Below the pieces are notes generated by a model. The model ran no database searches, had not been told where the DNA came from, and was given only the letters and a program-made list of their open reading frames with translations. Shown in pieces: positions 127 through 19,401 of a stretch of 19,401 bases of DNA. The position numbers and the translations under genes are program-made. Source of the DNA: a virus; the UHGV virus genome UHGV-0140152; one strand, given 5' to 3'. Position 1 is the first letter of the stretch. Each line of letters starts with the position of its first letter.

Positions 127-147
127 TTAAGCAACCATTCTTCACAA

Positions 148-176
148 TGCCCGGCAACACGCTGGGCATTTTTATA
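148..176 (+). terminator. rho-independent terminator of metG
   Basis: Inverted repeat ATGCCC...GGGCAT followed by TTTTT directly after the metG stop. Confidence 0.7.
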
Positions 177-209
177 TAGACACAATCCCTTCTGACTTTA
201 ACAAACCCT

Positions 210-275
210 AAAACAATTTGTTTTCTGCCTTTTGTTAATTGAGATAATAAGCCACATAAGAAAACAAATTGTTTC
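210..275. promoter_or_regulatory. two AACAA-N-TTGTT palindromic operator-like sites upstream of the first island gene
   Basis: aaaacaatttgtttt (about 210-224) and aaaacaaattgttt (about 261-274). The same palindrome family recurs upstream of the genes starting at 2166, 2711, 3662, 7473 and 19365. Confidence 0.5.
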
Positions 276-287
276 GGAGTGGTTGAA

Positions 288-587
288 ATGTTGAACATTA
301 CCCAAGCCTACCAGGTGGCATTGATCAGTTCATCTCATACATCAGAGGAAGATGCTCGCCGATTCATGATCGCAAGCAATGAGCTGGATTGGGTTTCGCA
401 AATTGACGGCGGTTGTATTGTCCACGCCGGGTTACAGGATGATGTCTGGAAAGACGACTTGCGTCGATATGGTATATCCGAAGGCGCGATTGCTAACATT
501 CAGAAAGTACTTGATGTAGGCTTTGACTCTGTACATTTTGATTGTGGTGCGCCGGTCGTTGAAGGGCTTGAGTGCTGGAACTGGTAA
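288..587 (+). CDS. hypothetical protein (about 100 aa)
   Basis: Track ORF 279..587; ATG at 288 sits 8 nt after GGAG. The track start at 279 is a GTG alternative. No family recognised. Confidence 0.6.
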   Translation: MLNITQAYQVALISSSHTSEEDARRFMIASNELDWVSQIDGGCIVHAGLQDDVWKDDLRRYGISEGAIANIQKVLDVGFDSVHFDCGAPVVEGLECWNW

Positions 588-699
588 ATCTGCAAACAGA
601 TTCAAACCGTTGATAATGGCGGTCACAATTTGATTCTTTTCTATAAGAATCCGTTGATCGCCACTACTCCCCTTCCATATCTGCAATCACATCCTTAAA

Positions 700-1560
700 T
701 ATCAATAAGTTATAGTTGTTTATACAAACCAGAAAACAACTGAATAACAGATCAATGAAACCTCAACACTTTCACCCGATTTGGTCTAAAAAATTGACGT
801 TTTCACACATCACTTCTTATACCCGCAATTCTACGCAGCAGACAGCGCCACAGCGTCCAATTTTCACCACAGACGACTCAACACACTACCAACAAAAACA
901 CACGCTCAAAATCGCTCCCGTTGCGTTACACAACCATATAAACAACTTATTTTCAGGAATAACAAAACAACTAAATAACACATGCGCCATTCCCAAAAAC
1001 AACCAACCTCTTTATGGCAGGCTACCGAAAAGACCCACCTCTTCTTCCCAGGCTACCGGACAACCAACCTAACTTTCACAGGCAATACGAAAACATTCAT
1101 GCGCGCGATACCCACGACACGCCATTCCCCAAACAGCGAAGAAACACCAGAATCACTGAAACCCCAACGAAGCCTGTTACCGCAAGGATTCTCTCAATCC
1201 CAAAAGACACGAAACATAACAATCACGGGAAACGCCATTACCCAATACACGAATAACCACAAAAGCCTTTCACACACTCCAGACAAACAACTCAAACACA
1301 ATAACGAAAGGAATCGCCCACCTGCCATTACTCCATACACGGAGAAAAACAATCACCAAAACGACGAGAACACCCCATAGAAGAACCACCGCAAAACGAA
1401 CGAAACCATTTACACCGACAGAGAGAACAACACACCCAATTCACCAACAGAATTAGTCGCCGTATAGAACGTTCTGGAAGGAGTGAGCATTAACGTCCAT
1501 AGAGAGGTTGAGACAGATAAAACACGAAGAAAACACAACATGTATAGCGAAGAAGCCAGG
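700..1560 (+). other. about 850-bp non-coding tract, A+C-rich and G-poor on the plus strand
   Basis: Strong strand compositional skew. The only ORFs are overlapping low-complexity P/T/N/Q-rich frames with no RBS. Contains degenerate roughly 30-bp repeats starting caggctaccg (about 1017-1083). Confidence 0.6.
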
Positions 1561-1580
1561 TATGTATAAGTGGGGAGGGA

Positions 1581-1606
1581 AGGAGGGGTGTCGCCTCCTT
1601 TTTCGT
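1581..1606 (+). terminator. putative intrinsic terminator ending the AC-rich tract
   Basis: AGGAGG ggtgtcg CCTCCT hairpin followed by TTTTT. Confidence 0.5.
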
Positions 1607-1690
1607 ATTTATTCAACTCCTGATTTTATCCCCCGTAACACCCCTACGGTCAGCCTTCGGTCCATACAGGGGAAAGGCTGCATCCCGCTA

Positions 1691-1802: not shown

Positions 1803-2165
1803 ACAGGTATAGCGAGAGGGAGAGTTGCGGCTACCCACCTGTAATGTGCGGGAAGAAGAGAGACGCTCACGTGCAGGTGAACTTACTTACCGCTGGATTC
1901 CCTCTGAATGCCCAGCTACAGCGTAATTGTGCCAGACAGTCAGCGGGTCACAATCGATTTCAGTAGGTTTTCGGGGAGAGGATTATTCTGTCCACCAGCC
2001 ACCTTCGGCCACTAAATCAGAATAATGTAAAAAGTGTACTCGGTACTGAACCTGAAAAATCACTGCCAAAACCACATTCACCGGAATAAAATCCTTTTTC
2101 GCCTTTGCGTTATTGCGATAATAACACCAACAAGAAAACAACGTGTTTAGGCAAAGGAGAAATAC

Positions 2166-2342
2166 ATGTACAGGCATCTGAATGTCAGTATCACCCTCGA
2201 TGACGTTATCCACTCTCAGGATGTAGCTGGTCGCGTGGTGACGCTCATCTCTGAAGGATACAGAGAAGGGATGTTTGATTTCCATATCGAGGACAACCCA
2301 ATGTCCGTCGCGTGGAACTGCACGACGTCAGAAACAAAGTGA
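2166..2342 (+). CDS. small hypothetical protein (58 aa, MYRHLNVSITLDDVIHSQ...)
   Basis: Not in the ORF track (too short). AAGGAG sits 7 nt upstream of ATG; the leader taacaccaacaagaaaacaa is shared with the gene at 7473; stop lies 10 nt before the next gene. Confidence 0.5.
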   Translation: MYRHLNVSITLDDVIHSQDVAGRVVTLISEGYREGMFDFHIEDNPMSVAWNCTTSETK

Positions 2343-2352
2343 GGGTGAATAG

Positions 2353-2571
2353 ATGATTAAGATGCCTGTGATGGTTGAGGTGTGGAACGTGGATTCCCTG
2401 GCCGAGTGCCTGGATGCAGTGGGGCCGGAGCTGTATCGCAAATTGTGGTCGTTCGTCCCGGCTGAAGGGGAATCACCCAAAGGGAAGGAGATCTGGCACC
2501 TGCTCAGTGAAGATGAACAGCGGGAGCTGGTGGACGCGGTACACATTGAGTTCCCGGACGACGAAGATTAA
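2353..2571 (+). CDS. small acidic hypothetical protein (72 aa)
   Basis: Track ORF; GAGGG RBS 7 nt upstream; acidic C-terminus EFPDDED; followed by a terminator. Confidence 0.6.
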   Translation: MIKMPVMVEVWNVDSLAECLDAVGPELYRKLWSFVPAEGESPKGKEIWHLLSEDEQRELVDAVHIEFPDDED

Positions 2572-2577
2572 GAGTGA

Positions 2578-2601
2578 GGCCACCAGCACGGTGGCTTTTT
2601 G
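2578..2601 (+). terminator. intrinsic terminator
   Basis: GCCACC agcac GGTGGC hairpin followed by TTTTT. Confidence 0.7.
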
Positions 2602-2710
2602 CTGTTTGCAACCTCCGGGGCAGCGCAGCGCCGTAACGCTATGCTTTGTAGCCTTTTTCTTACTGGTATTATTTACGCCATTGAGAAAACAAGTTGTTTA
2701 CGGAGTTGTG

Positions 2711-3025
2711 ATGAAAAAATCATTGGTTCTTGGTCTGGACAAAGACCAGAAGAGAAAAGAGAAGCCTGCACTGGTTGCTCAATTAACTTTGCTGGACATC
2801 GTTGCCAATGGAACCTCTATTCGTCTGTTCCGTGAAACAGCGGTGTCTTTCGATAAAAACACCTTTACTCGTTATGTAATGAATGTTCGTCGCCAGCGTG
2901 GAAAAGGCTGGGTGGCATTTCAAAGAATGTGGCCTGCACATCAGCTCGAGCTGGCTTTGATGGAAGTAAACCGCGTGGCCCAGCAAGAAATTCAGAGAGC
3001 ATCAGTGATGGCAACAGCCTGGTAA
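2711..3025 (+). CDS. hypothetical protein (104 aa, MKKSLVLGLDKDQKRKEK...)
   Basis: In-frame ATG inside track ORF 2375..3025, downstream of the 2578-2601 terminator; GGAG 5 nt upstream; AAACAAGTTGTTT palindrome at about 2686-2699. Confidence 0.6.
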   Translation: MKKSLVLGLDKDQKRKEKPALVAQLTLLDIVANGTSIRLFRETAVSFDKNTFTRYVMNVRRQRGKGWVAFQRMWPAHQLELALMEVNRVAQQEIQRASVMATAW

Positions 3026-3056
3026 TGTGCAAGTGGTAATTAGTCGACAGTACGAC

Positions 3057-3086
3057 AGCCCCGACGTCCTTACGGGGCTTTTTTGT
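3057..3086 (+). terminator. intrinsic terminator
   Basis: AGCCCCG ...CGGGGCT hairpin followed by TTTTTT. Confidence 0.75.
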
Positions 3087-3148
3087 ATTGTAAGCACATA
3101 CCTACGATCATAGAATAGAAAAATAACTAATACACTACGGAGAGTGAA

Positions 3149-3544
3149 ATGACCGTTAAACGCGAAAAACTGACAGTTGATGTTTACTATGCCTCTGAAA
3201 CCGCCGAAGGTAAGAATGTGGCAAAAATTACCGTTGTTACGTACAACACCGAAACTGGTGCCGAAGTACAGGCCAGTACGATCGTGCGTAAAGGTGATGC
3301 CTCCGGCGGCGAGTACGCGACTCAATACCAGTCCATTCTCGATGCAACTGACCCGCTGCTGCTGAAAATCGAGAACTACTTCCGCCAGGTTGATGAAGAG
3401 GTGTTTGAAACCATGATGAATATGGTTAATTCCGTATTCACCTCCAGCCTGAACACCCGCACTACCTGGATTGGTCAGTACGGTCTGCGTATTACCTCCG
3501 GCATTCCTGCTGACACCTTAATCCCTGAAAGCGTATTCGCTTAA
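3149..3544 (+). CDS. hypothetical protein (131 aa)
   Basis: Track ORF; GGAG RBS 7 nt upstream of ATG; own terminator downstream. Confidence 0.7.
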   Translation: MTVKREKLTVDVYYASETAEGKNVAKITVVTYNTETGAEVQASTIVRKGDASGGEYATQYQSILDATDPLLLKIENYFRQVDEEVFETMMNMVNSVFTSSLNTRTTWIGQYGLRITSGIPADTLIPESVFA

Positions 3545-3553
3545 TCCTCTTTA

Positions 3554-3582
3554 AATGGCGCGTAAACCTCGCCATTTTCTTA
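3554..3582 (+). terminator. intrinsic terminator
   Basis: AATGGCG cgtaaacct CGCCATT followed by TTCTT. Confidence 0.6.
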
Positions 3583-3661
3583 TACCCGATAATAATTTGT
3601 TTTCTACCTTATCTGATTTGTGAAAATGATTTCACTGAAGCAACTTAATAAGGAAAAAATC

Positions 3662-4036
3662 ATGGGACTTGATATCTACATCGAGACGCAGCCAAAAAAC
3701 GATCTGAATAACGATACATCCAGATGGCAGGTTGGCTACTTCCGCAAGTTCAATGCGCTTGTATCGTGGGTGGAGAATAACGTTGGTATGGTTGAGAACT
3801 GTGAACTTGTGGAGCTTAACCGTGAGCATTTGCTGAAGCTGAAAGCAGACCTGGATTGTCTCAATAAAGAAAATTGCAGTGAAATAATGCCCACAATGGA
3901 AGGATTCTTTTTCGGCAGTCAGGAGTACGACGACTTCTACTGGAGAGACGTGGATGAACTGAGAGAACTCACGGAACAGCTGATAGAGAATCACGATTTC
4001 GACAATAACAGACTGACGTTCTGCGCCTGGTGGTAA
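3662..4036 (+). CDS. hypothetical protein (124 aa, MGLDIYIETQPKND...)
   Basis: Track ORF 3620..4036; preferred start is the ATG at 3662, 7 nt after AAGGA. Preceded by the operator-like aataatttgttttct. Confidence 0.65.
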   Translation: MGLDIYIETQPKNDLNNDTSRWQVGYFRKFNALVSWVENNVGMVENCELVELNREHLLKLKADLDCLNKENCSEIMPTMEGFFFGSQEYDDFYWRDVDELRELTEQLIENHDFDNNRLTFCAWW

Positions 4037-4038
4037 AT

Positions 4039-4182
4039 ATGGGCGATTTCAAGAAAACCCTGAAGGAAAGAACCGAAATGGTCAGAAAGCAAAACGCCTC
4101 TTCTGTCATCAGATACGCAAGGCAGTTCAGCAAAAACAACAGACAGATTGAAGAGCAAATCAAATCAGTCATAGTCAGATAA
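4039..4182 (+). CDS. possible small basic protein (47 aa) coupled to the upstream gene
   Basis: ATG 2 nt after the upstream stop, open to TAA, followed immediately by a strong terminator. Weak RBS; not in the track. Confidence 0.25.
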   Translation: MGDFKKTLKERTEMVRKQNASSVIRYARQFSKNNRQIEEQIKSVIVR

Positions 4183-4187
4183 GAAAC

Positions 4188-4229
4188 AGCGCCAGAAAAG
4201 CCAACGGGAGCGATTCTGGCGCTTTTTTT
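4188..4229 (+). terminator. intrinsic terminator
   Basis: AGCGCCAGAA ...TTCTGGCGCT 10-bp stem followed by TTTTTTT. Confidence 0.8.
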
Positions 4230-4317
4230 GTTCTGGTGACAGGATTACTCCTGTCAGGGCTGTTTCTTTTGTTACAGACGCTATCATGAAGACAAAAAGA
4301 GAAGGAAGATCACTGAT

Positions 4318-4425
4318 AGGTCTGGGAGTTACTTCAGTTTTAAAAATGCCTGCTTCCGTATATATAAATAATAAGTAACTTAATAAATATATACGGAAGC
4401 AGGCACTGTTAAGACTCCAGAAGTG
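4318..4425. repeat. structured palindromic element, copy 1 (17-bp stem, conserved AT-rich 22-nt loop)
   Basis: CCTGCTTCCGTATATAT-aaataataagtaacttaataa-ATATATACGGAAGCAGG with flanking ggtctgggag. A near-identical copy lies at 19171-19267. Confidence 0.7.
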
Positions 4426-4656
4426 AGCAAAAATCAACCTAAAAAGACACTGAACTCACCAGAATAAACTTAACCAGCCAGTACAGGCGCTGAAGTCTTC
4501 CGTAGCAGGCATCAAAGGGAATTTCGTTAAGGTACTTCAGCATAGGGTGGATGGATATCAAACCGTATGTGTATTGCCTCTCGTTTGATGCCTCCTGAAG
4601 CACCTTTAAAAGTTTTTTAAAAGCGCTACAATGACTATCAGATAAGAGGAGGTTTT

Positions 4657-4908
4657 ATGAGCTATCAAATTCTGACGACGACAGCAGCCAGCATTACTGA
4701 GCTGAAAAGAAACCCTATGGGCACTGTAGCTGAAGGTGAGGGGGAGGCCGTCGCAATCCTGAACCGGAATGAACCCGCGTTTTACTGTGTCCCACCAGAA
4801 CTTTATGCCTACTATCGGGAACTCGCCGAGGACGCTGAACTTAACGCGATTGCAGATGAAAGAATGAAAGAACCGGACATTGTGAAGGTTAACCTGAATG
4901 ACCTATGA
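4657..4908 (+). CDS. stbD: type II antitoxin, Phd/YefM (StbD-like) family
   Basis: 83-aa protein MSYQILTTTAASITELKRNP... resembling StbD/Phd antitoxins; GAGGAGG RBS; overlaps the downstream RelE-like toxin gene. Confidence 0.8.
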   Translation: MSYQILTTTAASITELKRNPMGTVAEGEGEAVAILNRNEPAFYCVPPELYAYYRELAEDAELNAIADERMKEPDIVKVNLNDL

Positions 4909-5179
4909 GCTGGCATTTGAACGCAGGGCACTGAAAGAATGGCAGAAGCTCGGCCACACTGTTCGTGAACAATTCAAAAAGAAGCTGTCAGAGCGCCTGA
5001 AAAATCCACATGTCCCCGCAGCCAGGCTATATGGTCATACTGACCGTTACAAAATTAAGCTTCGCGCATCCGGTTACAGGCTCGTTTATCAGGTAATTGA
5101 TGAGAAGGTTGTTTTGCTTGTCATTGCTGTAGGAAAAAGGGAAAGCAGCGAAGTCTATCACACGGCTGATACTCGTTAG
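4898..5179 (+). CDS. stbE: type II toxin, RelE/StbE family mRNA interferase
   Basis: 93-aa protein with ...RALKEWQKLG..., ...YKIKLRASGYRLVYQVIDEKVV..., ...VGKRESSEVY..., closely matching E. coli RelE as I recall it. Classic coupled antitoxin-toxin arrangement. Confidence 0.85.
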   Translation: MTYELAFERRALKEWQKLGHTVREQFKKKLSERLKNPHVPAARLYGHTDRYKIKLRASGYRLVYQVIDEKVVLLVIAVGKRESSEVYHTADTR

Positions 5180-5204
5180 CAAAGTGCGCCTTATATCCTC
5201 GCCT

Positions 5205-5440
5205 GTTGACTAAATCTCATAATAACCTGAGGTCAATTTCTTCTGTTTGTGACCTCAGGTTAATTTCCTTTATTTATAACCTTAACTTATTAGGCTGCAT
5301 TTTATTCCGCGTCATCGCTTCATTATTTATGTATATGGCGACCTTATTTAATTACGCCCACCTGAACTTACTTCTTTTCCGCCTGTTTCATTCAGCGATA
5401 ATTAACGCATCGAAACGAAACTAAACGAAAGGAGTTAAAA
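5205..5440 (+). promoter_or_regulatory. cassette leader 1 (homologous to 6200-6342)
   Basis: 12-bp inverted repeats aacctgaggtca / tgacctcaggtt, conserved block cctgaacttacttcttttccgcctgtttcattcagcgat and a conserved RBS context. Confidence 0.55.
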
Positions 5441-6160
5441 ATGAGTGCGCGTCTTAAGAAGCTTATCAAAAAGCGTAAATCTCTTAAAGAACATGCAGAA
5501 TTGATAAATTTAATTGAAAAACGTTTTCCAGTCATTTCGGATATTGAGGACTTCTATTGGGTGGAGAAATGTAAAGTTTGGGATGGCATTGATGATGTAA
5601 AAGATGTGGATGATTTTGTCAGCAAGTACAACCCAGACATTAACTACAAACTAGCTGATGATTTTGCTGGCTCGTCTAAAGATGATCCGCTTCCTGATTG
5701 GTTTAACATTGATGATTATCCTAGTTGCATGTGTACCACCTACACCAACAAAGATTTTAGTAAAGCGTGGTTTGCTATTGCTTATGGCTGTTATTTCAAT
5801 AAGTCCGACGGAAGCAAAAGACCATATTTTCTCGCTGAAATAGACTTAACCAGCGGAGAGATTACAGTACACGAAAACCACAGGAATCTAATGAAGCTTG
5901 TTGATAGCGTTCGCGTACTGGATACAGACGCCCAGCAATTAACGAACAATGCATGGTTCGGACTTGATGGAGTAAAAGGGGGTATCGAACTGATAATGGG
6001 TCATCTTTTAAATGAATACTCGGACTGGTATCATCCGCCACACAATCCGCTTGAGTCATTTGACGATCCGCTTGAGCCATTTGACGATCCGCTGAAGGAC
6101 TACATCGATGAACCAATATATATGATGGAATCTTTTCAATTAGATATGATTCCAGCATGA
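5441..6160 (+). CDS. highly acidic hypothetical protein (239 aa); distant paralog of 8856..9503
   Basis: Track ORF; AAGGAG RBS. Shares ...DFSKAWF...FLAEIDLTSGEITV... and NPLESFDD with the minus-strand protein at 8856..9503. Confidence 0.75.
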   Translation: MSARLKKLIKKRKSLKEHAELINLIEKRFPVISDIEDFYWVEKCKVWDGIDDVKDVDDFVSKYNPDINYKLADDFAGSSKDDPLPDWFNIDDYPSCMCTTYTNKDFSKAWFAIAYGCYFNKSDGSKRPYFLAEIDLTSGEITVHENHRNLMKLVDSVRVLDTDAQQLTNNAWFGLDGVKGGIELIMGHLLNEYSDWYHPPHNPLESFDDPLEPFDDPLKDYIDEPIYMMESFQLDMIPA

Positions 6161-6165
6161 CAAAC

Positions 6166-6197
6166 GCCACCAGTTAACGCTGGTGGCTTCAAGTTTT
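6166..6197 (+). terminator. intrinsic terminator
   Basis: GCCACCAG ttaacg CTGGTGGC followed by TTCAAGTTTT. Confidence 0.65.
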
Positions 6198-6199
6198 GC

Positions 6200-6342
6200 T
6201 CTCATCACCTCAGGTCAAATTTCCTCGTTTGCAACCTCAGGTCAATTTAAGAATGATATCACCTGTATCCCTGAACTTACTTCTTTTCTGCCTGTTTCAT
6301 TCAGCGATGATTATTACATCGAAAACAAACGAGGAATTAAAA
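6200..6342 (+). promoter_or_regulatory. cassette leader 2 (homologous to 5205-5440)
   Basis: Two acctcaggtcaa repeats, conserved block cctgaacttacttcttttctgcctgtttcattcagcgat and GAGGA RBS. Confidence 0.55.
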
Positions 6343-7269
6343 ATGAAACCAGTATTTTTGGGGCGAATTGATATTAGTGAATTGTTTTCAGTTAGAGATG
6401 GGTTCCAATATGACTGTGATTGCCTTGAACTTAATGGTCTTGAACGTGAATACAGATTGGCTATTGTGAATGATGGTAAGAAGACATTTTCTGTCGAATG
6501 TTTTGAAAATACTTACTTTAAGCAGGTGTTGAGAATAAGACAGCATGTGGAGATGTCAATTCGGGAAAACATCAAAAATAAATGTGAGTTTCTTGTGGTT
6601 AAAAATGAAGCAGATGAAATAAACTTTGTTACGTTCACTGATAGTGGTCGATTGGCTATGCTGGAGCTATTTCAGCTGATCGTTTCTAATAACAGTATAA
6701 CAGAAGCCTTGAACAGTCTTTCAACTATAGTATCAAGAGAAAGAGAAAACACTGGCGCTTTAATTGTAGAGGAGCTAGATGGAATACTCGAGAAGATCAA
6801 GAATAAAGAGCTGATTATAGAATATGGCAAGGAAAGTAGGAAAAATAATTTACATTCAGCTTTTCACTCCCCATATGTTGAGCGTTTGAATGGTTTGGCT
6901 GCTTTTGTTAATTTGGACTTTAATAGATTTTTTAGTTCTTTTTTTACAGAGTGTGGGCTTGTTATTGTTGAGGTAAATAATGAGAACGATGTCCCCAAAA
7001 TTATAGTACATTCGATGCCTGATATATCTCTCAATGAAATTGGGGACAAACTGGAGAATTTATACGATGTAAAAAGCATGGAAGAACTCATAGAGTATCT
7101 GGCCATAAATGCGGTAGCCATGGCTGATAATGATGTGTTTGGGGTTGGTGCACTGCATGAAGGTTTTCTTGACGCCCTTGAGCTTTACGGGACTGCTCGC
7201 TGGTTTCTGTCAGGATTAGTGGATGATGCACCTTTACTCATCAATACAGATTATTTTTATTCCAGTTGA
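6343..7269 (+). CDS. hypothetical protein (308 aa)
   Basis: In-frame ATG within track ORF 6196..7269, placed after the conserved leader and GAGGA RBS. No family recognised. Confidence 0.7.
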   Translation: MKPVFLGRIDISELFSVRDGFQYDCDCLELNGLEREYRLAIVNDGKKTFSVECFENTYFKQVLRIRQHVEMSIRENIKNKCEFLVVKNEADEINFVTFTDSGRLAMLELFQLIVSNNSITEALNSLSTIVSRERENTGALIVEELDGILEKIKNKELIIEYGKESRKNNLHSAFHSPYVERLNGLAAFVNLDFNRFFSSFFTECGLVIVEVNNENDVPKIIVHSMPDISLNEIGDKLENLYDVKSMEELIEYLAINAVAMADNDVFGVGALHEGFLDALELYGTARWFLSGLVDDAPLLINTDYFYSS

Positions 7270-7275
7270 AAACAA

Positions 7276-7300
7276 GGCCACCACTGCTGGTGGCCTTAAA
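7276..7300 (+). terminator. putative terminator hairpin
   Basis: GGCCACCA ctgc TGGTGGCC hairpin; the T-tract is weak. Confidence 0.45.
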
Positions 7301-12168: not shown

Positions 12169-12311
12169 TACTGCTTTGCCAGAAGAATACCATATGCAAA
12201 ACATTCTATTGCTGTTAAAATTTAATCGTTCAGACATAAGGAAGCCCTATACCCTCGACAAATCTTTCTGGTATTGTCGAGGGCATGTTTCACATTTATA
12301 GGTAGATAGCG

Positions 12312-13292
12312 TTAATTGGTGTTTTTGTTCTTCTCTTTTTTGCTAATTTCATCACATGTAAGGTTCATTATGTCTATGTTTTCTTGCTTTTGAAGGTTGC
12401 CGACAATTTTTTTGCGCAATTCATAAAATCGCTCGCGTGGTATAGCTTCCTTGTTGCCGTTGATGTGAAGTATTGCGTGACAGCTAGGGCAGACGGCAAT
12501 CAGATCTGTTTTTGGGTTCACGCTTCGTGCATCTTCGCCTTGTGAAAGTGGGACGATGTGGTGAGCGTGTAGCAGCGTTTTCGTTTCTTTGCCGTCAATT
12601 TCCTTGCCGTATATTTCCGACATCGTTCTGCAACATAATTGACACCTGTAGTCTGCGTTTGCCAGAACGTCATTCCTTAACCCGGATACGCGGCTACGAT
12701 GTTGCGACTGGATTAATCTTGTTTCGCCCTCTATATATTCCTCAACTTCTTCTTTCTGGAGGTCGTAGCTGATTTCTTCTTGAGTCGGATGGACTTTTTT
12801 GTATAGAAGATCAAGATATTTAATGTCCTCTGTTATATATTTGGAATCCTCTAGCGAGGATATTTTTCCTGAGTCTATGTAGTCAATTAATGTAATAAGG
12901 AACATCTCTATCGATAGCCTGTTTTTAAAGGCAAACGAATATCCAAGATGTCTTCTATCTCCTGAATGAATTGGCGTCCAATGAGATTTCTCAATTTTTT
13001 GTGGTGTTACGCAGATACCTTTGCCGATATTGTTTACATGTTCCAATAATTGATAAACAGAATTAATGCGGTAAGCATGTGTTACTAAAGAATTTATTTT
13101 TCTTGTGCCGACGGAGGATTTTGTCATAACAACATGATGAGATATTTGTTTTTTTAAAATCAAATCATACGATGTAGCTTTTTGGTTTTCGCCTTTGTCG
13201 GTTTTTTTTATTAAATTTAGTTTTTTATTAGAGGCTATTTTCTCTATTTCTTCTCTAACTTCTTTTATCGTCATGTAAGTTTCTTTTGTCAT
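12312..13292 (-). CDS. HNH endonuclease, McrA-like C-terminal domain with an unrecognised N-terminal domain (326 aa)
   Basis: C-terminus YRCQLCC...LLHAHHIVPLSQGEDARSVNPKTDLIAVCPSCHAILH is an HNH motif with two Cys pairs, arranged like McrA. AT-rich gene. Confidence 0.8.
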   Translation of the reverse strand: MTKETYMTIKEVREEIEKIASNKKLNLIKKTDKGENQKATSYDLILKKQISHHVVMTKSSVGTRKINSLVTHAYRINSVYQLLEHVNNIGKGICVTPQKIEKSHWTPIHSGDRRHLGYSFAFKNRLSIEMFLITLIDYIDSGKISSLEDSKYITEDIKYLDLLYKKVHPTQEEISYDLQKEEVEEYIEGETRLIQSQHRSRVSGLRNDVLANADYRCQLCCRTMSEIYGKEIDGKETKTLLHAHHIVPLSQGEDARSVNPKTDLIAVCPSCHAILHINGNKEAIPRERFYELRKKIVGNLQKQENIDIMNLTCDEISKKEKNKNTN

Positions 13293-13390
13293 TATAATTC
13301 GACCTACTGGAATATCTTGATTTAAGAGGCTACAAATATCGTTCAGCCAATCAAGAAATTTTTTCAGCCGGAGGTTTGTACTTCAAAAAA

Positions 13391-13406
13391 TGTGATGAAT
13401 GTCACA
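13391..13406. promoter_or_regulatory. perfect CRP-consensus-like palindrome TGTGA-N6-TCACA, about 105 bp upstream of the HNH gene
   Basis: tgtgatgaatgtcaca within the duplicated promoter segment; on the minus strand it is followed by TTTTTT. Confidence 0.45.
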
Positions 13407-13431
13407 TGCAGGTGCGCTCATACACCTGCAT
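13404..13431 (-). terminator. hairpin after the stop of 13440..14006; likely terminator of the helicase operon
   Basis: CATGCAGGTG cgctcata CACCTGCATG, a perfect 10-bp stem, 9 nt past the stop codon. Confidence 0.5.
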
Positions 13432-13439
13432 GTAGACTA

Positions 13440-14006
13440 TTAATCATTCAATAATCTATATTTGCTTTTGATTAAATCTTCACCTTTTCTGGTGAACACA
13501 AAACCAAATTGCGATTTTTTGTTCAGTCGAAGAACTCTGTTATCCAGTGCATCGGTTGACGGAATTAGTGTCTGATCATCTATCCAATTTAGTAGCGTAA
13601 GAAAGTTCAGCAACCTCAACGTTGTTGTGCGAAGCTCTTTCGATATATTTTCAATGCTGGCAATTCGTCTTTCTTTTTTCTTTGGCGTTTCGATTAACTT
13701 CGCTTGAGAGGTGGACAATGAATAGATATTTTCATTGTCCTCATCAAACAACAGATGTTGGGTAAGTTTGCTAAAAAAACCTCGTGCGGATTCGCTTGAT
13801 AACACTCCCTCTTTATTCATATCATTAGTTATTCTGTACAAGAGTGGACCGTACTTCATTTCAGGATAACGTTGATAAAAGTTAAGTAATTCAAAAGCAG
13901 CATTAGCACCAACAAGAAAATCAGAAGGATCGCTGACCTTCCAGAAAGAATGATTTTTCTTAGCGCCTGTGGTGTCAACAAATGATAATTCTTTTAAACA
14001 ACTCAT
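13440..14006 (-). CDS. hypothetical protein (189 aa, MSCLKELSFVDTTGAKK...)
   Basis: Track ORF 13440..14039; preferred start is the ATG at 14006, 6 nt after AAGGAG. No family recognised. Confidence 0.7.
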   Translation of the reverse strand: MSCLKELSFVDTTGAKKNHSFWKVSDPSDFLVGANAAFELLNFYQRYPEMKYGPLLYRITNDMNKEGVLSSESARGFFSKLTQHLLFDEDNENIYSLSTSQAKLIETPKKKERRIASIENISKELRTTTLRLLNFLTLLNWIDDQTLIPSTDALDNRVLRLNKKSQFGFVFTRKGEDLIKSKYRLLND

Positions 14007-14071
14007 GATGTACTCCTTTCTAACAAGTGAGCACATCATAGAATTGGTGGATAGGGGGTAAATATGGAACG

Positions 14072-14350
14072 TTACGGCAACCTGCTCAGTATTTCCTCCA
14101 GATCTTCTTTGGTCATATTAGAGTTCTCATAAATACGCATAATTTTCTCACGAGTCTTAGCAGAGACTCCAACGGCAGATGAAACTTTGTCAAATTCAGC
14201 CATTGTCATTGTCTCCAGAATGGCATTGATAACTTCAGCCTTAGACATTTTGATATTTTTTTCTTTTAGTTTCACTTGAAACTTTCCAAGTTTGTCATTG
14301 GCCTTATCCGACAATGACACCTGACAATAAGTTGTTTTCTTTTCGCTCAT
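14072..14350 (-). CDS. small putative ribbon-helix-helix DNA-binding protein (92 aa)
   Basis: N-terminal strand-helix-helix pattern (TTYCQVSLSDKANDKLGKF...MSKAEVINAILETM); start is 2 nt after the helicase stop, suggesting translational coupling. Confidence 0.55.
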   Translation of the reverse strand: MSEKKTTYCQVSLSDKANDKLGKFQVKLKEKNIKMSKAEVINAILETMTMAEFDKVSSAVGVSAKTREKIMRIYENSNMTKEDLEEILSRLP

Positions 14351-14352
14351 AA

Positions 14353-15912
14353 CTAATCTCGTTTCAGAACTCCAAAATCGAATGTGCCATCAATTGGCAA
14401 TACACCTTCTGCAAAGCCAGGTGTGGTGTCGATGATGTGTTTTCGCTCATAAGAGTGAGACAACAGGTATTTGTTGCTAATGTCAATGAAATCAGTGATA
14501 AAACACACGTTTGCCTGATTTTTTTTTGCTCGTAAGCCACGACCGACACGCTGTCTCATTTCAACTTCTGCTTTCCCACCACCAGCAAGAATGACCGCGC
14601 CCACGCTTGGCACATCAACACCGACATCCAGAATAGTCGAGCCTATTAAAACATCTATTTCGCCAGACGCTAAACTGTTCAGCTTTGCTTGCCTTGTCGT
14701 CTGGTTCGATTCCCCATAGATGAAGTCAACTCTAAGGCCGGACTCTTTCATCATCTCCATCAGGATTTGCCCGTGGCGTTTAAGACGAACCAGAGTCATG
14801 CAGTTGAGAGAATGTTGCTTATAGAGCAATGCTTCTCGTACTATGGCCTCGTTTCGTCCCAAATTATACACGATCCCCAACTGATAAGCTTTTTGGTAGG
14901 CAGTGCTCATACCTACCCTAAAATTGAGGTGTTTGTTGGCAAGTTCTGCCTTGATTCTGACCTCGTCTGGTTTGTAGGCAACTTTATGATAAAGGAAATA
15001 TGGCTTTGCCAGAATACCTCTATCAATCAGGTATTTTTCTGTAACTTTAATTTCAATTCGCCCGGCCACAGCCATCAGACGCATGTTGGCTTCTGTAGAA
15101 GCCTTCATGAACGGCGTTGCCGTAAGCGCCAGGCGATAGTCTGCGTTCGTACATAATCTGGCAATGTCATAGAAATTAGAGCCTGAAGACTCATGCGCCT
15201 CTTCCAGAATAAGAAGAGAGACACTTGAAAGGAAGCGCTTCACTAACTCCTGACGTTTGAGGTGGTAGCTCTTCTTATCTGGTGTTGCATCGCGTGGTGG
15301 TTCTTCGAGGAAACTTGCAATAGTTTGAACTGTAGCGACGTTGATATGTCGTGATACCTGAAACTCACCCGAGCCAATGATTCCAACCTTTTGGTCTTTT
15401 AACCACGGTTCGCCATTTTTGGCGCGGTAGTCGATGGATCTCTGGAAGTTTTCGGCCATCTGAAACATCAGAACAGATCGGGTTGTTAAAAATAATGTCA
15501 TTCGACCGATACGTGCAGCTGCTTTGCAGGCAACGTTAGATTTCCCACCACCAGTAGCGATCTGCGCAATCATCATTCCCTCGCGAACCAGTGTTTCCAC
15601 AGTCTGATCCTGATACGCATAATCAGGATTGTATGGGAATGGGTTAACCGCCGGATTTGGCTTTCCAAGCGCCGGGGCTTTGTCTTTGCGGATATGAACA
15701 CATTTGATGCCCGCCTTGTTCAAGTTCGCCGCTACAGGCTTGGCAAAGCCAGCAGGGAACGAGTTTTTACTCCAGTGGAACATCGTGCTTGTGCCCTTCC
15801 AGTCGCCAGTGTCGACTTCGTAGCTCAACATCTGTTGCACCAGTTGCTTTACCTTGTCATCTGCGCCAGAAATAAGCGCATTTACTGCGTTAGATACAAT
15901 CCGAACAGTCAT
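14353..15912 (-). CDS. SF2 DEAD/DEAH-box helicase (519 aa)
   Basis: Walker A ATGGGKS, motif II LILEEAH (DEAH variant), motif III LTATP, motif VI QRVGRGLR. About 110-aa N-terminal extension of unknown function. Confidence 0.85.
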   Translation of the reverse strand: MTVRIVSNAVNALISGADDKVKQLVQQMLSYEVDTGDWKGTSTMFHWSKNSFPAGFAKPVAANLNKAGIKCVHIRKDKAPALGKPNPAVNPFPYNPDYAYQDQTVETLVREGMMIAQIATGGGKSNVACKAAARIGRMTLFLTTRSVLMFQMAENFQRSIDYRAKNGEPWLKDQKVGIIGSGEFQVSRHINVATVQTIASFLEEPPRDATPDKKSYHLKRQELVKRFLSSVSLLILEEAHESSGSNFYDIARLCTNADYRLALTATPFMKASTEANMRLMAVAGRIEIKVTEKYLIDRGILAKPYFLYHKVAYKPDEVRIKAELANKHLNFRVGMSTAYQKAYQLGIVYNLGRNEAIVREALLYKQHSLNCMTLVRLKRHGQILMEMMKESGLRVDFIYGESNQTTRQAKLNSLASGEIDVLIGSTILDVGVDVPSVGAVILAGGGKAEVEMRQRVGRGLRAKKNQANVCFITDFIDISNKYLLSHSYERKHIIDTTPGFAEGVLPIDGTFDFGVLKRD

Positions 15913-15976
15913 AAACCTCTTTCCTTAGTGCCTTTTGTATGTTATTTGGCTATTATAATAAGTAAGCAATTACTTA
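15913..15976. promoter_or_regulatory. compact divergent promoter region with palindromic operator
   Basis: Self-complementary tattataata containing TATAAT on both strands, followed by the palindrome TAAGTAA-gcaa-TTACTTA at about 15959-15976. Confidence 0.5.
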
Positions 15977-16675
15977 GTGGATTGTAGCAATAAAATGGAT
16001 GTAAAAATTACGATTTTGCAGGTTGATGTTGCCAACCTTCGCCCGAATACCTGGAACACCAATTCGGTTGGTGCGCAGAATTTTGAAAAACTGAAAGGTT
16101 CTATCGAAAAATTAGGCTTTTTTAAACCAATTTTGGCTCGTGAAATTGAAGATGGATTTTTTGAAATCCTCGGTGGCGAACATCGCTGGCGTGCCGCTAT
16201 TGAGCAAGGAATTTCAACGGTTCCAGTGCTTTCTGTGGGCAAAATTAGCGATGTCGTAGCTAAACAGATGTCACTGGTGGACAACGAGCGATATGGTGAA
16301 GACGACCAAATCGCATTGCAACGCTTCATTGAAGAAATTCAGTCAGAACTTGACTATCAACTGTCTGAAATCGCCCCGTATGACGACGAAATCTCGATGG
16401 TTTTAGCAAAAGAGGCGGCAATCGACCTTGAAGCACTGGAGGCGTTGTCTCGTGGTAGTGATGAGCCTGTCGATACCGACAAACGAGAGAAAACCGAACG
16501 TGTGGGGGCGGAACATCAGACCATGCGCTTCAAAGTAACTTTCGATGCGTCAGATCGTGTTGCAGAAACCATAAAAAACATCATCAAAGAGCAGGCTATT
16601 AACACCGGTAATGAAATGGAGAACGCTGGTGAGGCTCTGGTGTGGCTGGTCGACTACTACAAGGAGCGTATGTAA
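15977..16675 (+). CDS. ParB/Srx-like N-terminal domain protein (about 226-232 aa)
   Basis: ParB-box-like motif ILGGEHRWRAAIEQG. The track start at 15977 is GTG; an alternative ATG lies at 15995; no strong RBS for either. Confidence 0.7.
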   Translation: MDCSNKMDVKITILQVDVANLRPNTWNTNSVGAQNFEKLKGSIEKLGFFKPILAREIEDGFFEILGGEHRWRAAIEQGISTVPVLSVGKISDVVAKQMSLVDNERYGEDDQIALQRFIEEIQSELDYQLSEIAPYDDEISMVLAKEAAIDLEALEALSRGSDEPVDTDKREKTERVGAEHQTMRFKVTFDASDRVAETIKNIIKEQAINTGNEMENAGEALVWLVDYYKERM

Positions 16676-17343
16676 TGACCAAAAAGTTTGAAATCGTATA
16701 TCGCGACCCGGCAGATCTTATTCCCTATGAGATGAATGCCAAAAAGCATGATGAACAGCAGATCCGAGATCTGGCCGCAGCCATTAAAAAGCGCGGATTT
16801 GACCAGCCAATTACGGTCGATAAGAACGACGTAATTATTACTGGCCACGGCCGCCGTGAGGCTGCAATTTTTGCTGGACTTGAGCGCGTACCGGTTATTG
16901 TTCGCGATGATCTCAGTGATGACGAGGTTCGTGCGAAGCGCCTTGAAGATAACCGACTTGCCAGCATTGATTACGATGCAATTAAGCTACAGAAAGAGCT
17001 TGAGTCGCTTGTTCTGGACGATATCGAGGTTTTCGGCTTTGAAGAGCGTGAGTTGAATGTTCTCGTTGGCAGCATGACAGAAGAAATGGACACCGACTCG
17101 CTAGTTATCGATCTGGGCGAAGAAACTAAACGACAGAAGGATGAACACACCGAGATCAGTCGTGAAGTTGCAGCGGAAGAAGTACGTGTTGTCGACGTAT
17201 TGGGCTTTAAAACGCTCCCTGCTGGCTCTGCCATTGTTGTTGGTGATTTGCTTGCCCACATGGAAGAAATGACGAGAGAAAGCGGGGTAGACGCATTTGT
17301 GGCATATGCGGAGAAGATCTCTTCCGGGGAGATGGCTGCATGA
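16675..17343 (+). CDS. second ParB/Srx-like domain protein (222 aa)
   Basis: Motif IITGHGRREAAIFAG. Preferred start is the ATG at 16675 within track ORF 16642..17343, 8 nt after AAGGAG and overlapping the upstream stop by 1 nt. Acidic C-terminal half. Confidence 0.75.
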   Translation: MTKKFEIVYRDPADLIPYEMNAKKHDEQQIRDLAAAIKKRGFDQPITVDKNDVIITGHGRREAAIFAGLERVPVIVRDDLSDDEVRAKRLEDNRLASIDYDAIKLQKELESLVLDDIEVFGFEERELNVLVGSMTEEMDTDSLVIDLGEETKRQKDEHTEISREVAAEEVRVVDVLGFKTLPAGSAIVVGDLLAHMEEMTRESGVDAFVAYAEKISSGEMAA

Positions 17344-18005
17344 GCAAATACATCATCAACGTATCGTTTCAGACACGCGTAAATAAAACCACGCGCACGT
17401 TGGAAATCGCTGAGTCGTTCGGGCTTGGCCTGGACGAAAAAGAGTGGACGCTTTACGACAATCTGGAGCTGGAAGTGAAGCAGGGCGATGTGGTGTACAT
17501 CACCGGCCAATCCGGTTCAGGTAAATCCGTTGTGTTGCGCGAGCTGCAACGCCAGATGAAGGATGAAGGGCTTTCTGTAGCTTCTATTGATGACTTTACC
17601 TTCGATAATGAGGTTAACGTCATTGACCAACTGGGCAAAACTACCAGTGATGCGCTTGGGTTGTTATCTATGGCAGGTCTGAACGATGCATATCTGTTTG
17701 TTCGCAAGCCTTCTGAAATGTCAGACGGTCAGAAATATCGTCTCAAGATTGCCAAACTGATTGAGTCAGGCGCTAAAGTGTGGGCTGCTGACGAGTTCGG
17801 TGCTGTTCTCGATCGTGTAACCGCTCAGGTTGTGGCATCTAACCTCCAGCGTGCCGCTCGAAAGGTTGGTGCGACGGTAATGGTGGCGACGACTCACGAA
17901 GACTTGAAGAACGCGCTGCGCCCGGATATGCAGATCACCAAGCACTACAAAGAACGCGTGAAGGTGGAGTATCACAATGGTAGTCATGATGAGGCTCATT
18001 CATGA
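17340..18005 (+). CDS. stand-alone ABC-type ATPase, nucleotide-binding domain only (221 aa)
   Basis: Walker A GQSGSGKS, signature-like SDGQKYR, Walker B plus D-loop VWAADEFGAVLD, H-loop ATTHE. No permease gene nearby; start overlaps the upstream stop. Confidence 0.8.
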   Translation: MSKYIINVSFQTRVNKTTRTLEIAESFGLGLDEKEWTLYDNLELEVKQGDVVYITGQSGSGKSVVLRELQRQMKDEGLSVASIDDFTFDNEVNVIDQLGKTTSDALGLLSMAGLNDAYLFVRKPSEMSDGQKYRLKIAKLIESGAKVWAADEFGAVLDRVTAQVVASNLQRAARKVGATVMVATTHEDLKNALRPDMQITKHYKERVKVEYHNGSHDEAHS

Positions 18006-18892
18006 CGGACATCATCATTAAACGCTACCGCCCTGAAGAGTTTCCGCGTCATCTGGACTTTCTGGAGCGAATGACAGTCACAAAGGGAACTGTAGAGGAC
18101 TGGCACGCTCTTAAGTCGCTTCACTACAAAACAGACGGCAAACCTTTCGCGCCAACTTACTATCGCTGCGAACTTGACGACCGTCTGGTGGGCGTCGTGG
18201 TTATGGCTTACCCGAAACTACTGCTGGCACCTCGCCACCGCATGTTTCCTAAGTTGAAACCAACCACCAATACCACCGTGGCTAACCAGTACTGGGGTCG
18301 GTACGTGAATAACAACTTTGCGGTGATCAGTCGCTCAGTTGTGGATACTCAGTATCGTGGCGTAGGCGTCTCTTATCGAATGATTAACCTGGTTAGCAGG
18401 ATGCATGACCGGCCAATCATTGAGATCCAGTCCTCGATGAGCAAATACAATCCCTTCGCCATGAAAGCAGGGTTTAAGTTCATCCGCCCTGAGCGACCGA
18501 AGAGCTATGAAAGTGCACTGCGTGTTTTCCAGCGTCATTTTCGCTCCGACCCGGGTGATAACGAGGCGATCGTCAAAGAGTTGTTCGCAATGAGCGAGTC
18601 ACGTCGTCGCCGTGCACTGCGTGATATGGTGGCGGACTACCACAAGAACAGTTCCCTGGCAAAAGCTGGGCGGAATCGTGGCACGACGATTCAGGACATT
18701 GCCGACAGTCTGGTGGACGAGGCCAGCATTGTGAAGCTGCTCAAGGACATTCACAACCTGAGCTTTACGTCTCCGCTGTATGGTGTGTACCGAAACCCTG
18801 ACTTTGGTCGTCGACTGCCTGACACGCTGCCACTGCTGGCATTCGACAAACAACCTTTGGATAAACCGTTAGAAATTGCTTTACCGGCATAA
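18002..18892 (+). CDS. GNAT-like acyltransferase-fold protein with C-terminal extension (296 aa)
   Basis: Motif-A-like AVISRSVVDTQYRGVGVSYRMINLV and motif-B-like YNPFAMKAGFKFI; start overlaps the ABC ATPase stop. Confidence 0.55.
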   Translation: MTDIIIKRYRPEEFPRHLDFLERMTVTKGTVEDWHALKSLHYKTDGKPFAPTYYRCELDDRLVGVVVMAYPKLLLAPRHRMFPKLKPTTNTTVANQYWGRYVNNNFAVISRSVVDTQYRGVGVSYRMINLVSRMHDRPIIEIQSSMSKYNPFAMKAGFKFIRPERPKSYESALRVFQRHFRSDPGDNEAIVKELFAMSESRRRRALRDMVADYHKNSSLAKAGRNRGTTIQDIADSLVDEASIVKLLKDIHNLSFTSPLYGVYRNPDFGRRLPDTLPLLAFDKQPLDKPLEIALPA

Positions 18893-18901
18893 GGATTTGC
18901 C

Positions 18902-19168
18902 ATGACGTTAACCGACAAACAAAAGGACATAATCAAAACGCTCAATCTCGGTTATGAGCGAGGTCATCTACTTGATCTGGACGAATTGCTTGAAGTTTTG
19001 CCGTACAAGACAACCAAGCAAAGTATCCAGTTCTCAATTCGCGCTCTGATAAAAAAGGGGCTGGTGGAGAAAGGGCATACGCGTCAACGCAGTGACAATC
19101 GCTATCACCGCCGGACTCTTGGGTTAACCACTTTAGGTCGAGCCAAAGCGAAGTTACTGGTGATGTAA
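18902..19168 (+). CDS. small basic protein, possible winged-helix DNA-binding regulator (88 aa)
   Basis: Track ORF; start 9 nt after the upstream stop; HTH-like segment TTKQSIQFSIRALIKKGLVEKG; last gene of the operon. Confidence 0.5.
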   Translation: MTLTDKQKDIIKTLNLGYERGHLLDLDELLEVLPYKTTKQSIQFSIRALIKKGLVEKGHTRQRSDNRYHRRTLGLTTLGRAKAKLLVM

Positions 19169-19170
19169 TC

Positions 19171-19267
19171 GGTCTGGGAGCTTATTTAAAGACCTGCTTC
19201 TGTATATATAAATAATAAGTAACTTAATAAATATATACGGAAGCAGGCTTAATAAGACATGCCCAGA
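19171..19267. repeat. structured palindromic element, copy 2
   Basis: ggtctgggag ... CCTGCTTCTGTATATAT-aaataataagtaacttaataa-ATATATACGGAAGCAGG. One C-to-T change in the left arm would keep a G-U pair in RNA. Confidence 0.7.
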
Positions 19268-19282
19268 TTCAATTAAACACAC

Positions 19283-19345
19283 CAGTAAACAAGTTGGTTA
19301 ATAGATGCAGTAAACAAGTTGTTTTAGAGCGCATGGACGCGCTCT
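19283..19345 (+). promoter_or_regulatory. direct repeats and operator-like palindromes upstream of the next gene
   Basis: cagtaaacaagttg twice; the second copy forms AAACAAGTTGTTT, identical to the palindrome at about 2686-2699. Followed by the hairpin AGAGCGC-atggac-GCGCTCT. Confidence 0.45.
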
Positions 19346-19364
19346 ATGTGTTTTAGAGGGATCT

Positions 19365-19401
19365 ATGACTGTCGAAAAAGACGAGGTGAAAACTCGCCTG
19401 A
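19365..19401 (+). CDS. 5' end of a gene running off the window (MTVEKDEVKTRL...)
   Basis: ATG 6 nt after GAGGG, open to the window end. Only 12 codons visible. Confidence 0.4.
   Translation, partial: MTVEKDEVKTRL

Follow-up and report, generated by a model that had tools for sequence, protein, structure and literature searches.

UHGV virus genome UHGV-0140152 was analysed as a stretch of 19,401 nucleotides of DNA (hereafter the window), which corresponds to bases 714-20114 of the 44,447-bp metagenome scaffold ERZ28620746 scaffold_163 from run SRR1761716, identified through exact sequence matches of two proteins of the window. The window begins with the 3' end of a metG gene (1-126, plus strand), whose translation ends in GHQVK and which is preceded by apbC/mrp in relatives. 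A strong intrinsic terminator of metG follows on the same strand at 146-178, where a hairpin (146-170) with a 10-bp stem containing six GC pairs is succeeded by a T-run. At the other end lies the start of a small terminase gene (19365-19401, plus strand), cut by the window end, which continues on the scaffold as a gene for 210 amino acids; CYRAN_1 of phage Cyrano is annotated as small terminase. Between these cut ends there are 27 complete plausible genes for 47-519 amino acids, most below 250, which form a mosaic of small cassettes at 0.3-13.3 kb and a core arm from 13.3 kb to the window end.

The original prediction had placed here an accessory island downstream of metG. The features that it listed are real and above chance expectation; the frame around them is not correct. 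Besides the many small genes, an AT-rich patch is seen at 11.5-14 kb, with a guanine-plus-cytosine (GC) content of 0.35-0.39, and low values also occur at 5-7 kb and 8.5-10.5 kb (0.36-0.40), against 0.45-0.51 elsewhere. Many repeats were found. The toxin-antitoxin pair lies at 4657-5179 with its toxin above the family cut-offs, and the nuclease and helicase genes are an HNH gene at 12312-13292 (PF01844, 22.5 bits against a cut-off of 21.4) and a DEAD/ResIII gene at 14353-15912. The window has no tRNA, and none of the open reading frames scanned has a domain of an integrase or transposase. Terminator-like sites are enriched, with 33 against 17.3 ± 4.1 in shuffles; sigma-70-like sites, with 35 against 37.8, are not.

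We compared the window with the 5,426 complete E. coli genomes, the PLSDB plasmids and the INPHARED phages. The best matches were plasmids of 108-116 kb together with the phages Cyrano (pLF82), PhiR41_1 and CMS-2020a, at 92-94% identity across 66-70% of the window, and more distant matches were found in Klebsiella phage-plasmids and Salmonella phage SSU5. The right arm (13400-19401) is present in 250 of the 5,426 genomes, at 262 places, all of which are on plasmids, of about 110 kb, and none chromosomal. Beyond the window the scaffold continues with the 210-residue TerS-like gene, a Terminase_6N gene, a portal gene for 524 amino acids and a DUF6651 gene; the terminase, portal and DUF6651 genes are intact as called. 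The gene order in annotated relatives is apbC, metG, small genes, helicase, two ParB-like genes, ABC-type ATPase, two further genes, terminase and portal. In one circular relative, pYLMB53a (112,732 bp), repA has 21-bp iterons on either side, and this plasmid also carries three tRNAs and genes for a tyrosine recombinase, DNA polymerase III alpha, a DnaB-like helicase, ligase, tail and capsid. The relatives are typed IncFIB in PLSDB, SSU5 and PhiR41_1 were deposited as phages, and virion production has been reported for Cyrano (PMC9928086). Phage-plasmids of the SSU5 supergroup were described by Pfeifer et al. 2021, with the groups SSU5_pHCM2 and pSLy3 (PMC7969092); the genus of the host and the size of the elements make it probable that the Escherichia members belong to the pSLy3 group (Table 1, PMC11652158).

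The metG fragment was examined with a query of the last 837 nucleotides of the gene plus 160 nucleotides downstream, taken from the source scaffold. All 5,426 E. coli genomes match this query. Among the 5,423 chromosomal matches, those sampled (28 of 30 matches taken across the ranking) all end at the stop codon with about 92% identity, whereas plasmid matches, at 221 places, run past the stop codon with 94.6-97.6% identity. Hence metG here, as judged from these comparisons, is a second, plasmid-borne copy and itself cargo. With metG plasmid-borne and the right arm plasmid-only, the premise of an insertion beside a core gene is removed. SSU5 is without metG at the corresponding position; therefore apbC and metG entered the family as a pair in a single branch. 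In the Escherichia branch metG is full-length and stands beside its divergent chromosomal neighbour apbC/mrp, with about 92% identity to the E. coli chromosomal copy. The pair represents an aminoacyl-tRNA synthetase locus that these elements have captured. In Cyrano lysogens of LF82 (S1 Table of Misson et al.; background 9.8 normalised counts), apbC is expressed about 9-fold and metG about 1.6-fold above background (PMC9928086).

Taken together, these data make it very probable that the window represents the arm between metG and the terminase in a phage-plasmid of the SSU5 supergroup (SSU5/pHCM2 type), a temperate siphovirus of about 110 kb that resides in enterobacteria as a low-copy circular plasmid. 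That this element is itself circular, extrachromosomal and phage-competent is suggested by its relatives and by 24 kb of scaffold. It would be maintained by functions for RepA/iteron replication and for partition that lie in other parts of the element, so that an integrase and attachment (att) sites would not be needed, and replication as a plasmid would explain the missing integrase. The cassette combination of this SSU5-type arm is unmatched in the databases searched. In its working the arm is like the early/accessory arm of plasmid prophages.

A tblastn presence/absence matrix of the window genes against six relatives separates the two parts of the arm. All genes beyond 13.3 kb occur in each of the full-length relatives, at 85-100% amino acid identity, and SSU5 has all the core genes except that for the 188-residue protein, at 62-99%. 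The coding density of the core arm is 92% and its GC content 0.46, against a coding density of 65% at 0.3-13.3 kb. The core comprises a leftward operon (13440-15912, minus strand) of the helicase (14353-15912), a 92-residue protein (14072-14350) and the 188-residue protein (13440-14006), and a rightward operon (15995-19168, plus strand) of a ParB-like protein (15995-16675), a ParB/Srx-like protein (16675-17343), an ABC-type ATPase (17340-18005), a 296-residue protein (18002-18892) and an 88-residue protein resembling winged helix-turn-helix proteins (18902-19168). Sequence searches found no relative in the PDB for the 296-residue protein or for the 308-residue protein of the left arm. The sequence pattern of the 92-residue protein (14072-14350, minus strand) is reminiscent of ribbon-helix-helix DNA binders. 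This assignment stays a guess: the model has a predicted local distance difference test score (pLDDT) of 51 and a profile search of the PDB was empty. Its orthologue is the arm's most expressed gene in Cyrano lysogens, at 114 counts or about 12-fold above background (PMC9928086), and the protein is a candidate regulator.

The two ParB-like proteins both have a ParB_N domain, with scores below the NCBIfam cut-off. A ParABS partition locus has an adjacent ParA and is expressed in the plasmid state; in the window no ParA lies beside either gene, and CYRAN_119, the orthologue in Cyrano, gives the floor value (5.0) in lysogens (PMC9928086). The 'partition' annotation of the ParB-like genes (within 15995-18892) is doubtful because there is no adjacent ParA, the terminase adjoins and the Cyrano orthologues, like those of the rest of the rightward operon, are at background in lysogens. 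This 'ParB' cluster near the terminase would serve the lytic programme and not plasmid partition, and the likely partition ATPase of the relatives is a MipZ-like protein encoded elsewhere. Upstream of the small terminase gene, at 19188-19326, lies a large palindrome (19188-19248) followed by two operator palindromes (19287-19299 and 19312-19324). The large palindrome has perfect 18-bp arms and an AT-rich loop and occurs in two copies of 61-81 nucleotides, at 4336-4416 and 19188-19248, which are 95% identical; pYLMB53a has the same dispersed palindrome at 34820-34877 and 67668-67723. The linear SSU5 and Cyrano records end inside the copy that precedes the terminase genes. This copy may lie at the packaging site or close to it, or may merely break assemblies. 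Rfam hits (E<=1) on the two AT-looped palindromes were to miRNA families and were set aside as spurious.

At 0.3-13.3 kb, the backbone is interrupted by variable blocks with a lower GC content (0.32-0.40, against 0.45-0.46 for the backbone; the median of the whole element is 0.47). The variable blocks are 4140-7270 (GC 0.40; toxin-antitoxin pair and proteins of 239 and 308 amino acids), 8846-9577 (GC 0.32; a protein of 215 amino acids) and 11065-13326 (GC 0.38; lipoprotein, a protein of 181 amino acids and the HNH nuclease). The first gene after metG, of the DUF5983 family (288-587, plus strand; 99 amino acids, PF19419 7.6e-11, phrog_5003), occupies a position that is itself variable, with DUF1380 or other genes in some relatives. 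Six small backbone genes follow at 2079-4182 on the plus strand, for 58 (2166-2342), 72 (2353-2571), 104 (2711-3025), 131 (3149-3544), 124 (3662-4036) and 47 amino acids (4039-4182). The 47-residue gene (4039-4182, plus strand) is missed by the source's gene calls. Beyond the toxin-antitoxin pair come the rare cargo cassettes for 239 (5441-6160) and 308 amino acids (6343-7269), which together span 5361-7269 on the plus strand and share a 61-nucleotide promoter/leader module (5361-5421 and 6270-6330); Chi-containing hairpins stand after both genes, at 6166-6187 and 7274-7297. The next backbone unit (7325-7955, plus strand) consists of two repeats of about 30 nucleotides (7325-7390), a promoter/operator module (7384-7452) and a gene for 160 amino acids (7473-7955, phrog_1641).

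The genes then turn to the minus strand, beginning with a backbone gene for 76 amino acids (8571-8801). The 215-residue cassette (8821-9600; gene 8856-9503, GC 0.32) stands between duplicated 26-nucleotide terminator hairpins (8821-8846 and 9575-9600). This site is a hot spot: the relative L001 has one copy of the hairpin and no gene, and PhiR41_1 has a different gene for 67 amino acids. The 239- and 215-residue proteins are distant paralogues (26% identity, E = 3e-7) of an orphan family with four representatives among 1.84 billion sequences, all in Escherichia phage-plasmid contexts; structure prediction and fold search gave nothing usable for this family. Leftwards from 11074 to 9608 are a FljA-like regulator (10550-11074, PF03614, 1.3e-70) and a gene for 216 amino acids (9608-10258, phrog_1513), and the last variable block (11079-13407) holds a lipoprotein (11079-11498, phrog_890), a protein of 181 amino acids (11515-12060) and the HNH nuclease (12312-13292), with one copy of an 81-nucleotide promoter-region repeat on each side of the HNH gene (12089-12169 and 13327-13407). 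The FljA-like protein (10550-11074, minus strand) is full-length, matches 'repressor of phase-1 flagellin' and is kept in all relatives. Possible targets are the flagellin of the host and the mRNAs of the element itself; in Cyrano the orthologue of this protein is about 16-fold up in the other conditions sampled, including macrophage infection (PMC9928086). In profile scans the other cargo genes had no assignable function beyond the toxin-antitoxin pair, HNH nuclease, lipoprotein and FljA-like protein. A search with PADLOC-DB 2.0 found no complete anti-phage defence system in the window, and its partial hits were to generic domains (PbeA-like helicase, HNH and ABC/mad3).

The toxin-antitoxin pair at 4657-5179 (plus strand) is a probable type II module of overlapping StbD (Phd/YefM-like) and RelE-StbE genes behind a sigma-70-like promoter at 4605-4632. 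The toxin matches PF05016 (8.6e-13, 49.1 bits against a cut-off of 23) and TIGR02385 RelE_StbE (38.1 bits against 27.9). The candidate antitoxin, of 83 amino acids, is encoded upstream and its gene overlaps the toxin gene by 11 nucleotides; it falls below the gathering cut-off (PF02604, 18.5 against 29.8 bits), with weak YafN/DnaT-N hits, and its orthologue is annotated 'plasmid stabilization protein'. The module is 88% identical in nucleotide sequence to that in 242 conjugative plasmids and 92.8% identical to that of E. albertii plasmids. Such a pair would stabilise the plasmid.

Breakpoints against the six relatives coincide with the repeated modules and hairpins; the left block ends within copy two of the 61-nucleotide promoter/leader module in some relatives and shortly before copy three in others. 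Furthermore, the Chi sequence (GCTGGTGG) occurs at nine exact sites against 0.28 expected from composition, namely 1992(-), 2526(+), 2580(-), 6179(+), 7286(+), 7992(-), 8116(+), 14579(-) and 19060(+). Six of the nine are non-coding, and three are inside the hairpins that close the 72-, 239- and 308-residue cassettes. In pYLMB53a Chi is the second most frequent octamer, with 25 sites per 112.7 kb; the density in the window is about twice that. Homologous recombination between the repeated promoter/hairpin modules, by which cassettes would be gained, lost and swapped, appears to be the simplest mechanism for the mosaic, and it may be stimulated by Chi, which some modules carry.

Another repeat is a 13-bp palindrome, AAACAAnTTGTTT, which has 16 matches in the window against 0.70 expected, including those at 211-223, 262-274, 940-952, 2136-2148, 2687-2699, 3590-3602, 7440-7452, 14325-14337, 19287-19299 and 19312-19324. 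Its position past -10-like hexamers is fixed, at 10-14 nucleotides, and it stands 10-60 nucleotides ahead of the start codons of many operons all around the element. In the first promoter/operator module (205-277, plus strand) the copies at 211-223 and 262-274 stand either side of a GATAAT -10-like hexamer, and the modules of the small backbone genes are at 2095-2151, 2646-2702 and 3584-3627 (plus strand). Seven rightward small genes share a paralogous module made up of a TTtcnG-type -35, a GATAAT-like -10, 10-14 nucleotides, GAAAACAAnTTGTTT, a Shine-Dalgarno sequence and ATG; the module is degenerate ahead of the 239- and 308-residue genes. In pYLMB53a there are 15 sites, most of them 10-60 nucleotides before start codons, and the genes that they precede include those for the DnaB-like helicase, a MipZ/ParA-like ATPase, CobT-like and TerB-like proteins and the terminase operon. 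The half-site word GAAAACAA is the most frequent octamer of pYLMB53a, and the palindrome is also present in SSU5, pHCM2 and elements of Enterobacter, Klebsiella and Cronobacter.

Expression in Cyrano lysogens bears on what the palindrome does. Most orthologues of the arm are at 5-18 counts, like the structural genes; the exceptions are the 92-residue gene (114), the helicase (46), the 47-residue gene (CYRAN_109, 58, about 6-fold) and, mildly, the 160-residue gene (25) (PMC9928086). The palindrome-preceded orthologues CYRAN_1, 101, 106 and 108 are at 6-12 counts and only CYRAN_111 is higher, at 25.5 (PMC9928086). The palindrome is probably a global operator, with promoters and operator function both predicted: it would bind a repressor made in lysogeny that silences these promoters together with the replication and packaging operons, and most of the small rightward genes would act early in the lytic cycle and not in lysogenic conversion. 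Candidate binders are a helix-turn-helix repressor beside the recombinase (CYRAN_45, expressed), the 92-residue protein (expressed), the ParB-like proteins and the FljA-like protein.

Between the DUF5983-family gene and the small backbone genes lies a conserved non-coding locus of about 1.4-1.5 kb (588-2150), in which ten relatives share no open reading frame with a conserved position or frame. It was found in 835 PLSDB plasmids of 10 or more enterobacterial genera (Klebsiella, Escherichia, Enterobacter, Salmonella, Citrobacter, Cronobacter and others), and long blocks of it are invariant. PGAP annotates nothing there in the sampled records, nearly all of which leave the locus unannotated. It contains a highly conserved 5' block, a promoter-like site TTGACG-17-TTATAC and an A/C-rich part of about 780 nucleotides (700-1480; top strand 39% A, 31% C, 13% G, 17% T) that holds three repeats of about 30 nucleotides (996-1083), several GCCATTAC repeats and one operator palindrome. 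There follow a conserved hairpin/terminator with some covariation (1577-1604) and about six copies of G-rich GGGAAAMGGCTGG repeats at 22-bp spacing (1669-1800). The motif recurs in a second non-coding stretch (7956-8570), which has GGGAAACGGC repeats at 22-bp spacing (about 7971-8084), several terminator hairpins and two of the Chi sites, at 7992 (minus) and 8116 (plus).

Several explanations of the 588-2150 locus were considered. A structured RNA for the A/C-rich part was dropped, since it folds no better than shuffles (z = -0.63), and Rfam (E<=1) gave nothing in the locus. The 22-bp repeats are iteron-like and were rejected as RepA iterons, since those of the relative read ATAACCACTGTAGAGAG. 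The cumulative GC skew of the whole relative follows gene orientation, with no extremum at the locus, and gives no support for an origin. Open reading frames called over the locus, CYRAN_103 and CYRAN_104, are at 5.0 (floor) and 14 in Cyrano lysogens (PMC9928086). The lysogenic expression of CYRAN_102 was rejected as a sign of transcription of the locus, CYRAN_102 being an extra gene that the window does not have. The locus could be a lytic replication origin, another DNA site for phage proteins or an early non-coding RNA. No description of a palindrome regulon or its operators, of Chi enrichment or of this non-coding locus in SSU5-type elements was found in the searchable literature, including a 2024 review (PMC11652158). 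We put forward tentatively that the SSU5 supergroup shares two undescribed functional elements, the genome-wide regulon of the palindrome AAACAAnTTGTTT downstream of -10-like hexamers and the non-coding locus 588-2150.

A rival reading, in line with the original prediction, takes the whole as a chromosomal genomic island downstream of a housekeeping metG, with integrase and att sites outside the window. In its favour, metG is a core gene and the region is patchily AT-rich, mosaic and rich in orphan genes, and the view of horizontally mobile, partly mosaic accessory DNA stands; insertion beside a chromosomal metG does not, given a core arm without any chromosomal copy. No E. coli chromosomal metG locus among the matches listed runs on into window sequence, the metG fragment resembles its plasmid counterparts (up to 97.6% identity) more than the chromosomal gene (about 92%), and the scaffold runs on into phage packaging genes. 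An integrative island has chromosomal core flanks at a site that is empty in related chromosomes, and an integrase with direct att repeats, often at a tRNA; here the chromosomal metG match goes no further than the stop codon, terminase and portal genes form the right flank, and the repeats found in the window are internal promoter/hairpin modules, not element ends. Mobility genes, as predicted, and maintenance genes do lie outside the window, in the sense that relatives have them elsewhere; there is no missing integrase or att site to seek. A gene order conserved in related genomes was to speak against the island, and this is so in part, the order from 13.3 kb on being core in all relatives and 0.3-13.3 kb variable. 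For E. coli the island is in effect refuted, and we give it next to no credence. It is improbable, to a lesser degree, that the arm is kept as plain plasmid DNA by a plasmid that derives from a phage-plasmid, or by a cointegrate, and has lost phage competence. The same metG arm is found in p2014C-4015-1 of E. albertii (63.8 kb) and in six records like it, of 62-64 kb. These plasmids (rep_cluster_488, non-mobilizable), far below the size of an intact element, carry metG and hold the toxin-antitoxin pair and the 215-residue cassette at 92.8%, and the rare cassettes of the window are common mainly to them; they may be shortened phage-plasmid derivatives. Against such a loss stand the small and large terminase, portal and DUF6651 genes directly after the window, intact as called on a 44-kb scaffold that is not closed.

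The small genes of the arm may be read in another way, as lysogenic-conversion 'morons', with the palindrome as a ParB/KorB-like partition or silencing site or as a 5' untranslated region site for the FljA-like protein. In favour of this, each gene has its own promoter and terminator, as morons do, the window encodes two ParB-family proteins and a FljA-like one (PF03614, 1.3e-70), one palindrome precedes the mipZ/parA-like gene of a relative, and the Cyrano orthologues of the 47-residue, 92-residue and helicase genes are expressed in lysogens. We consider this unlikely, since most palindrome-preceded Cyrano orthologues are at 6-12 counts against the background of 9.8, the ParB-like gene is at the floor, a poor fit for a partition protein needed in lysogeny, and AAACAA/UUGUUU with a 1-nucleotide spacer is unable to form an RNA hairpin. 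Our preferred reading, a phage-plasmid arm with operator-controlled early genes and exchangeable cassettes, has points that weigh against it as well. No database record covers at least 80% of the window. The scaffold starts inside metG, and circularity, repA and the extrachromosomal state are known from relatives only. The generic scan for sigma-70-like promoters showed no enrichment, the promoters are predictions, and the proteins proposed to bind the palindrome are candidates. The expression data come from the relative Cyrano, which is without the window-specific cassettes, and the proposed recombination mechanism was deduced from breakpoints in six relatives.

An annotator with the chromosome in mind who sees metG would wrongly call a genomic island where there is the accessory arm of a phage-plasmid; about one in 20 complete E. 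coli genomes has such an element, so that this error comes easily in metagenome bins. It is in this arm that the elements vary, and its cassettes between repeated promoter/operator and hairpin modules offer a way to catalogue the cargo. How lysogeny and lytic replication are controlled has been worked out in P1 and N15, whereas the literature searched describes no such controls for the SSU5 group. Confirmation of the palindrome regulon and of the non-coding locus would give first handles on both in SSU5-type elements.

The closest known system is the SSU5 supergroup itself (SSU5, pHCM2 of S. Typhi, Cyrano/pLF82, PhiR41_1 and pECOH89), with which the window shares 92-94% nucleotide identity to the Escherichia members and 67-87% to SSU5, the same order from metG or the equivalent position to the terminase, the same helicase/ParB/ParB/ABC core, the same non-coding locus and the same 13-bp palindrome. 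It differs in that its StbD/RelE pair, the 239-, 308- and 215-residue cassettes and this HNH variant are found elsewhere only in part, mainly on the 62-64-kb E. albertii plasmids. The predicted toxin-antitoxin pair resembles the RelE/StbE-StbD modules of enterobacterial plasmids in having a toxin above the TIGR02385 cut-off and an overlapping upstream gene for a candidate antitoxin; here, however, the candidate antitoxin is below the Pfam cut-off. Like lambdoid 'morons' and phage early cassettes, the cargo consists of single low-GC genes with their own promoter and terminator that are variably present in close relatives, but morons are defined by expression in the prophage and most orthologues here are silent in Cyrano lysogens.

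The predicted regulon invites comparison with two well-known networks. The C1 repressor of P1 controls separate operons of the plasmid prophage through many dispersed operators, each an asymmetric 17-bp site. The arrangement here, with one short operator before many operons that include replication and late functions, would resemble the P1 immunity network, whereas the motif is a symmetric palindrome of 13 bp. KorB of the IncP plasmid RK2 is a global repressor of the ParB family whose operator OB, also a 13-bp palindrome, has about 12 promoter-linked sites. A 13-bp palindrome dispersed at promoters of an element with ParB-family genes is reminiscent of this system, but the ParB-like orthologue is silent in Cyrano lysogens and no ParA is adjacent here. 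Both likenesses are offered as resemblances, of an SSU5-type operator network to those of P1 and RK2.

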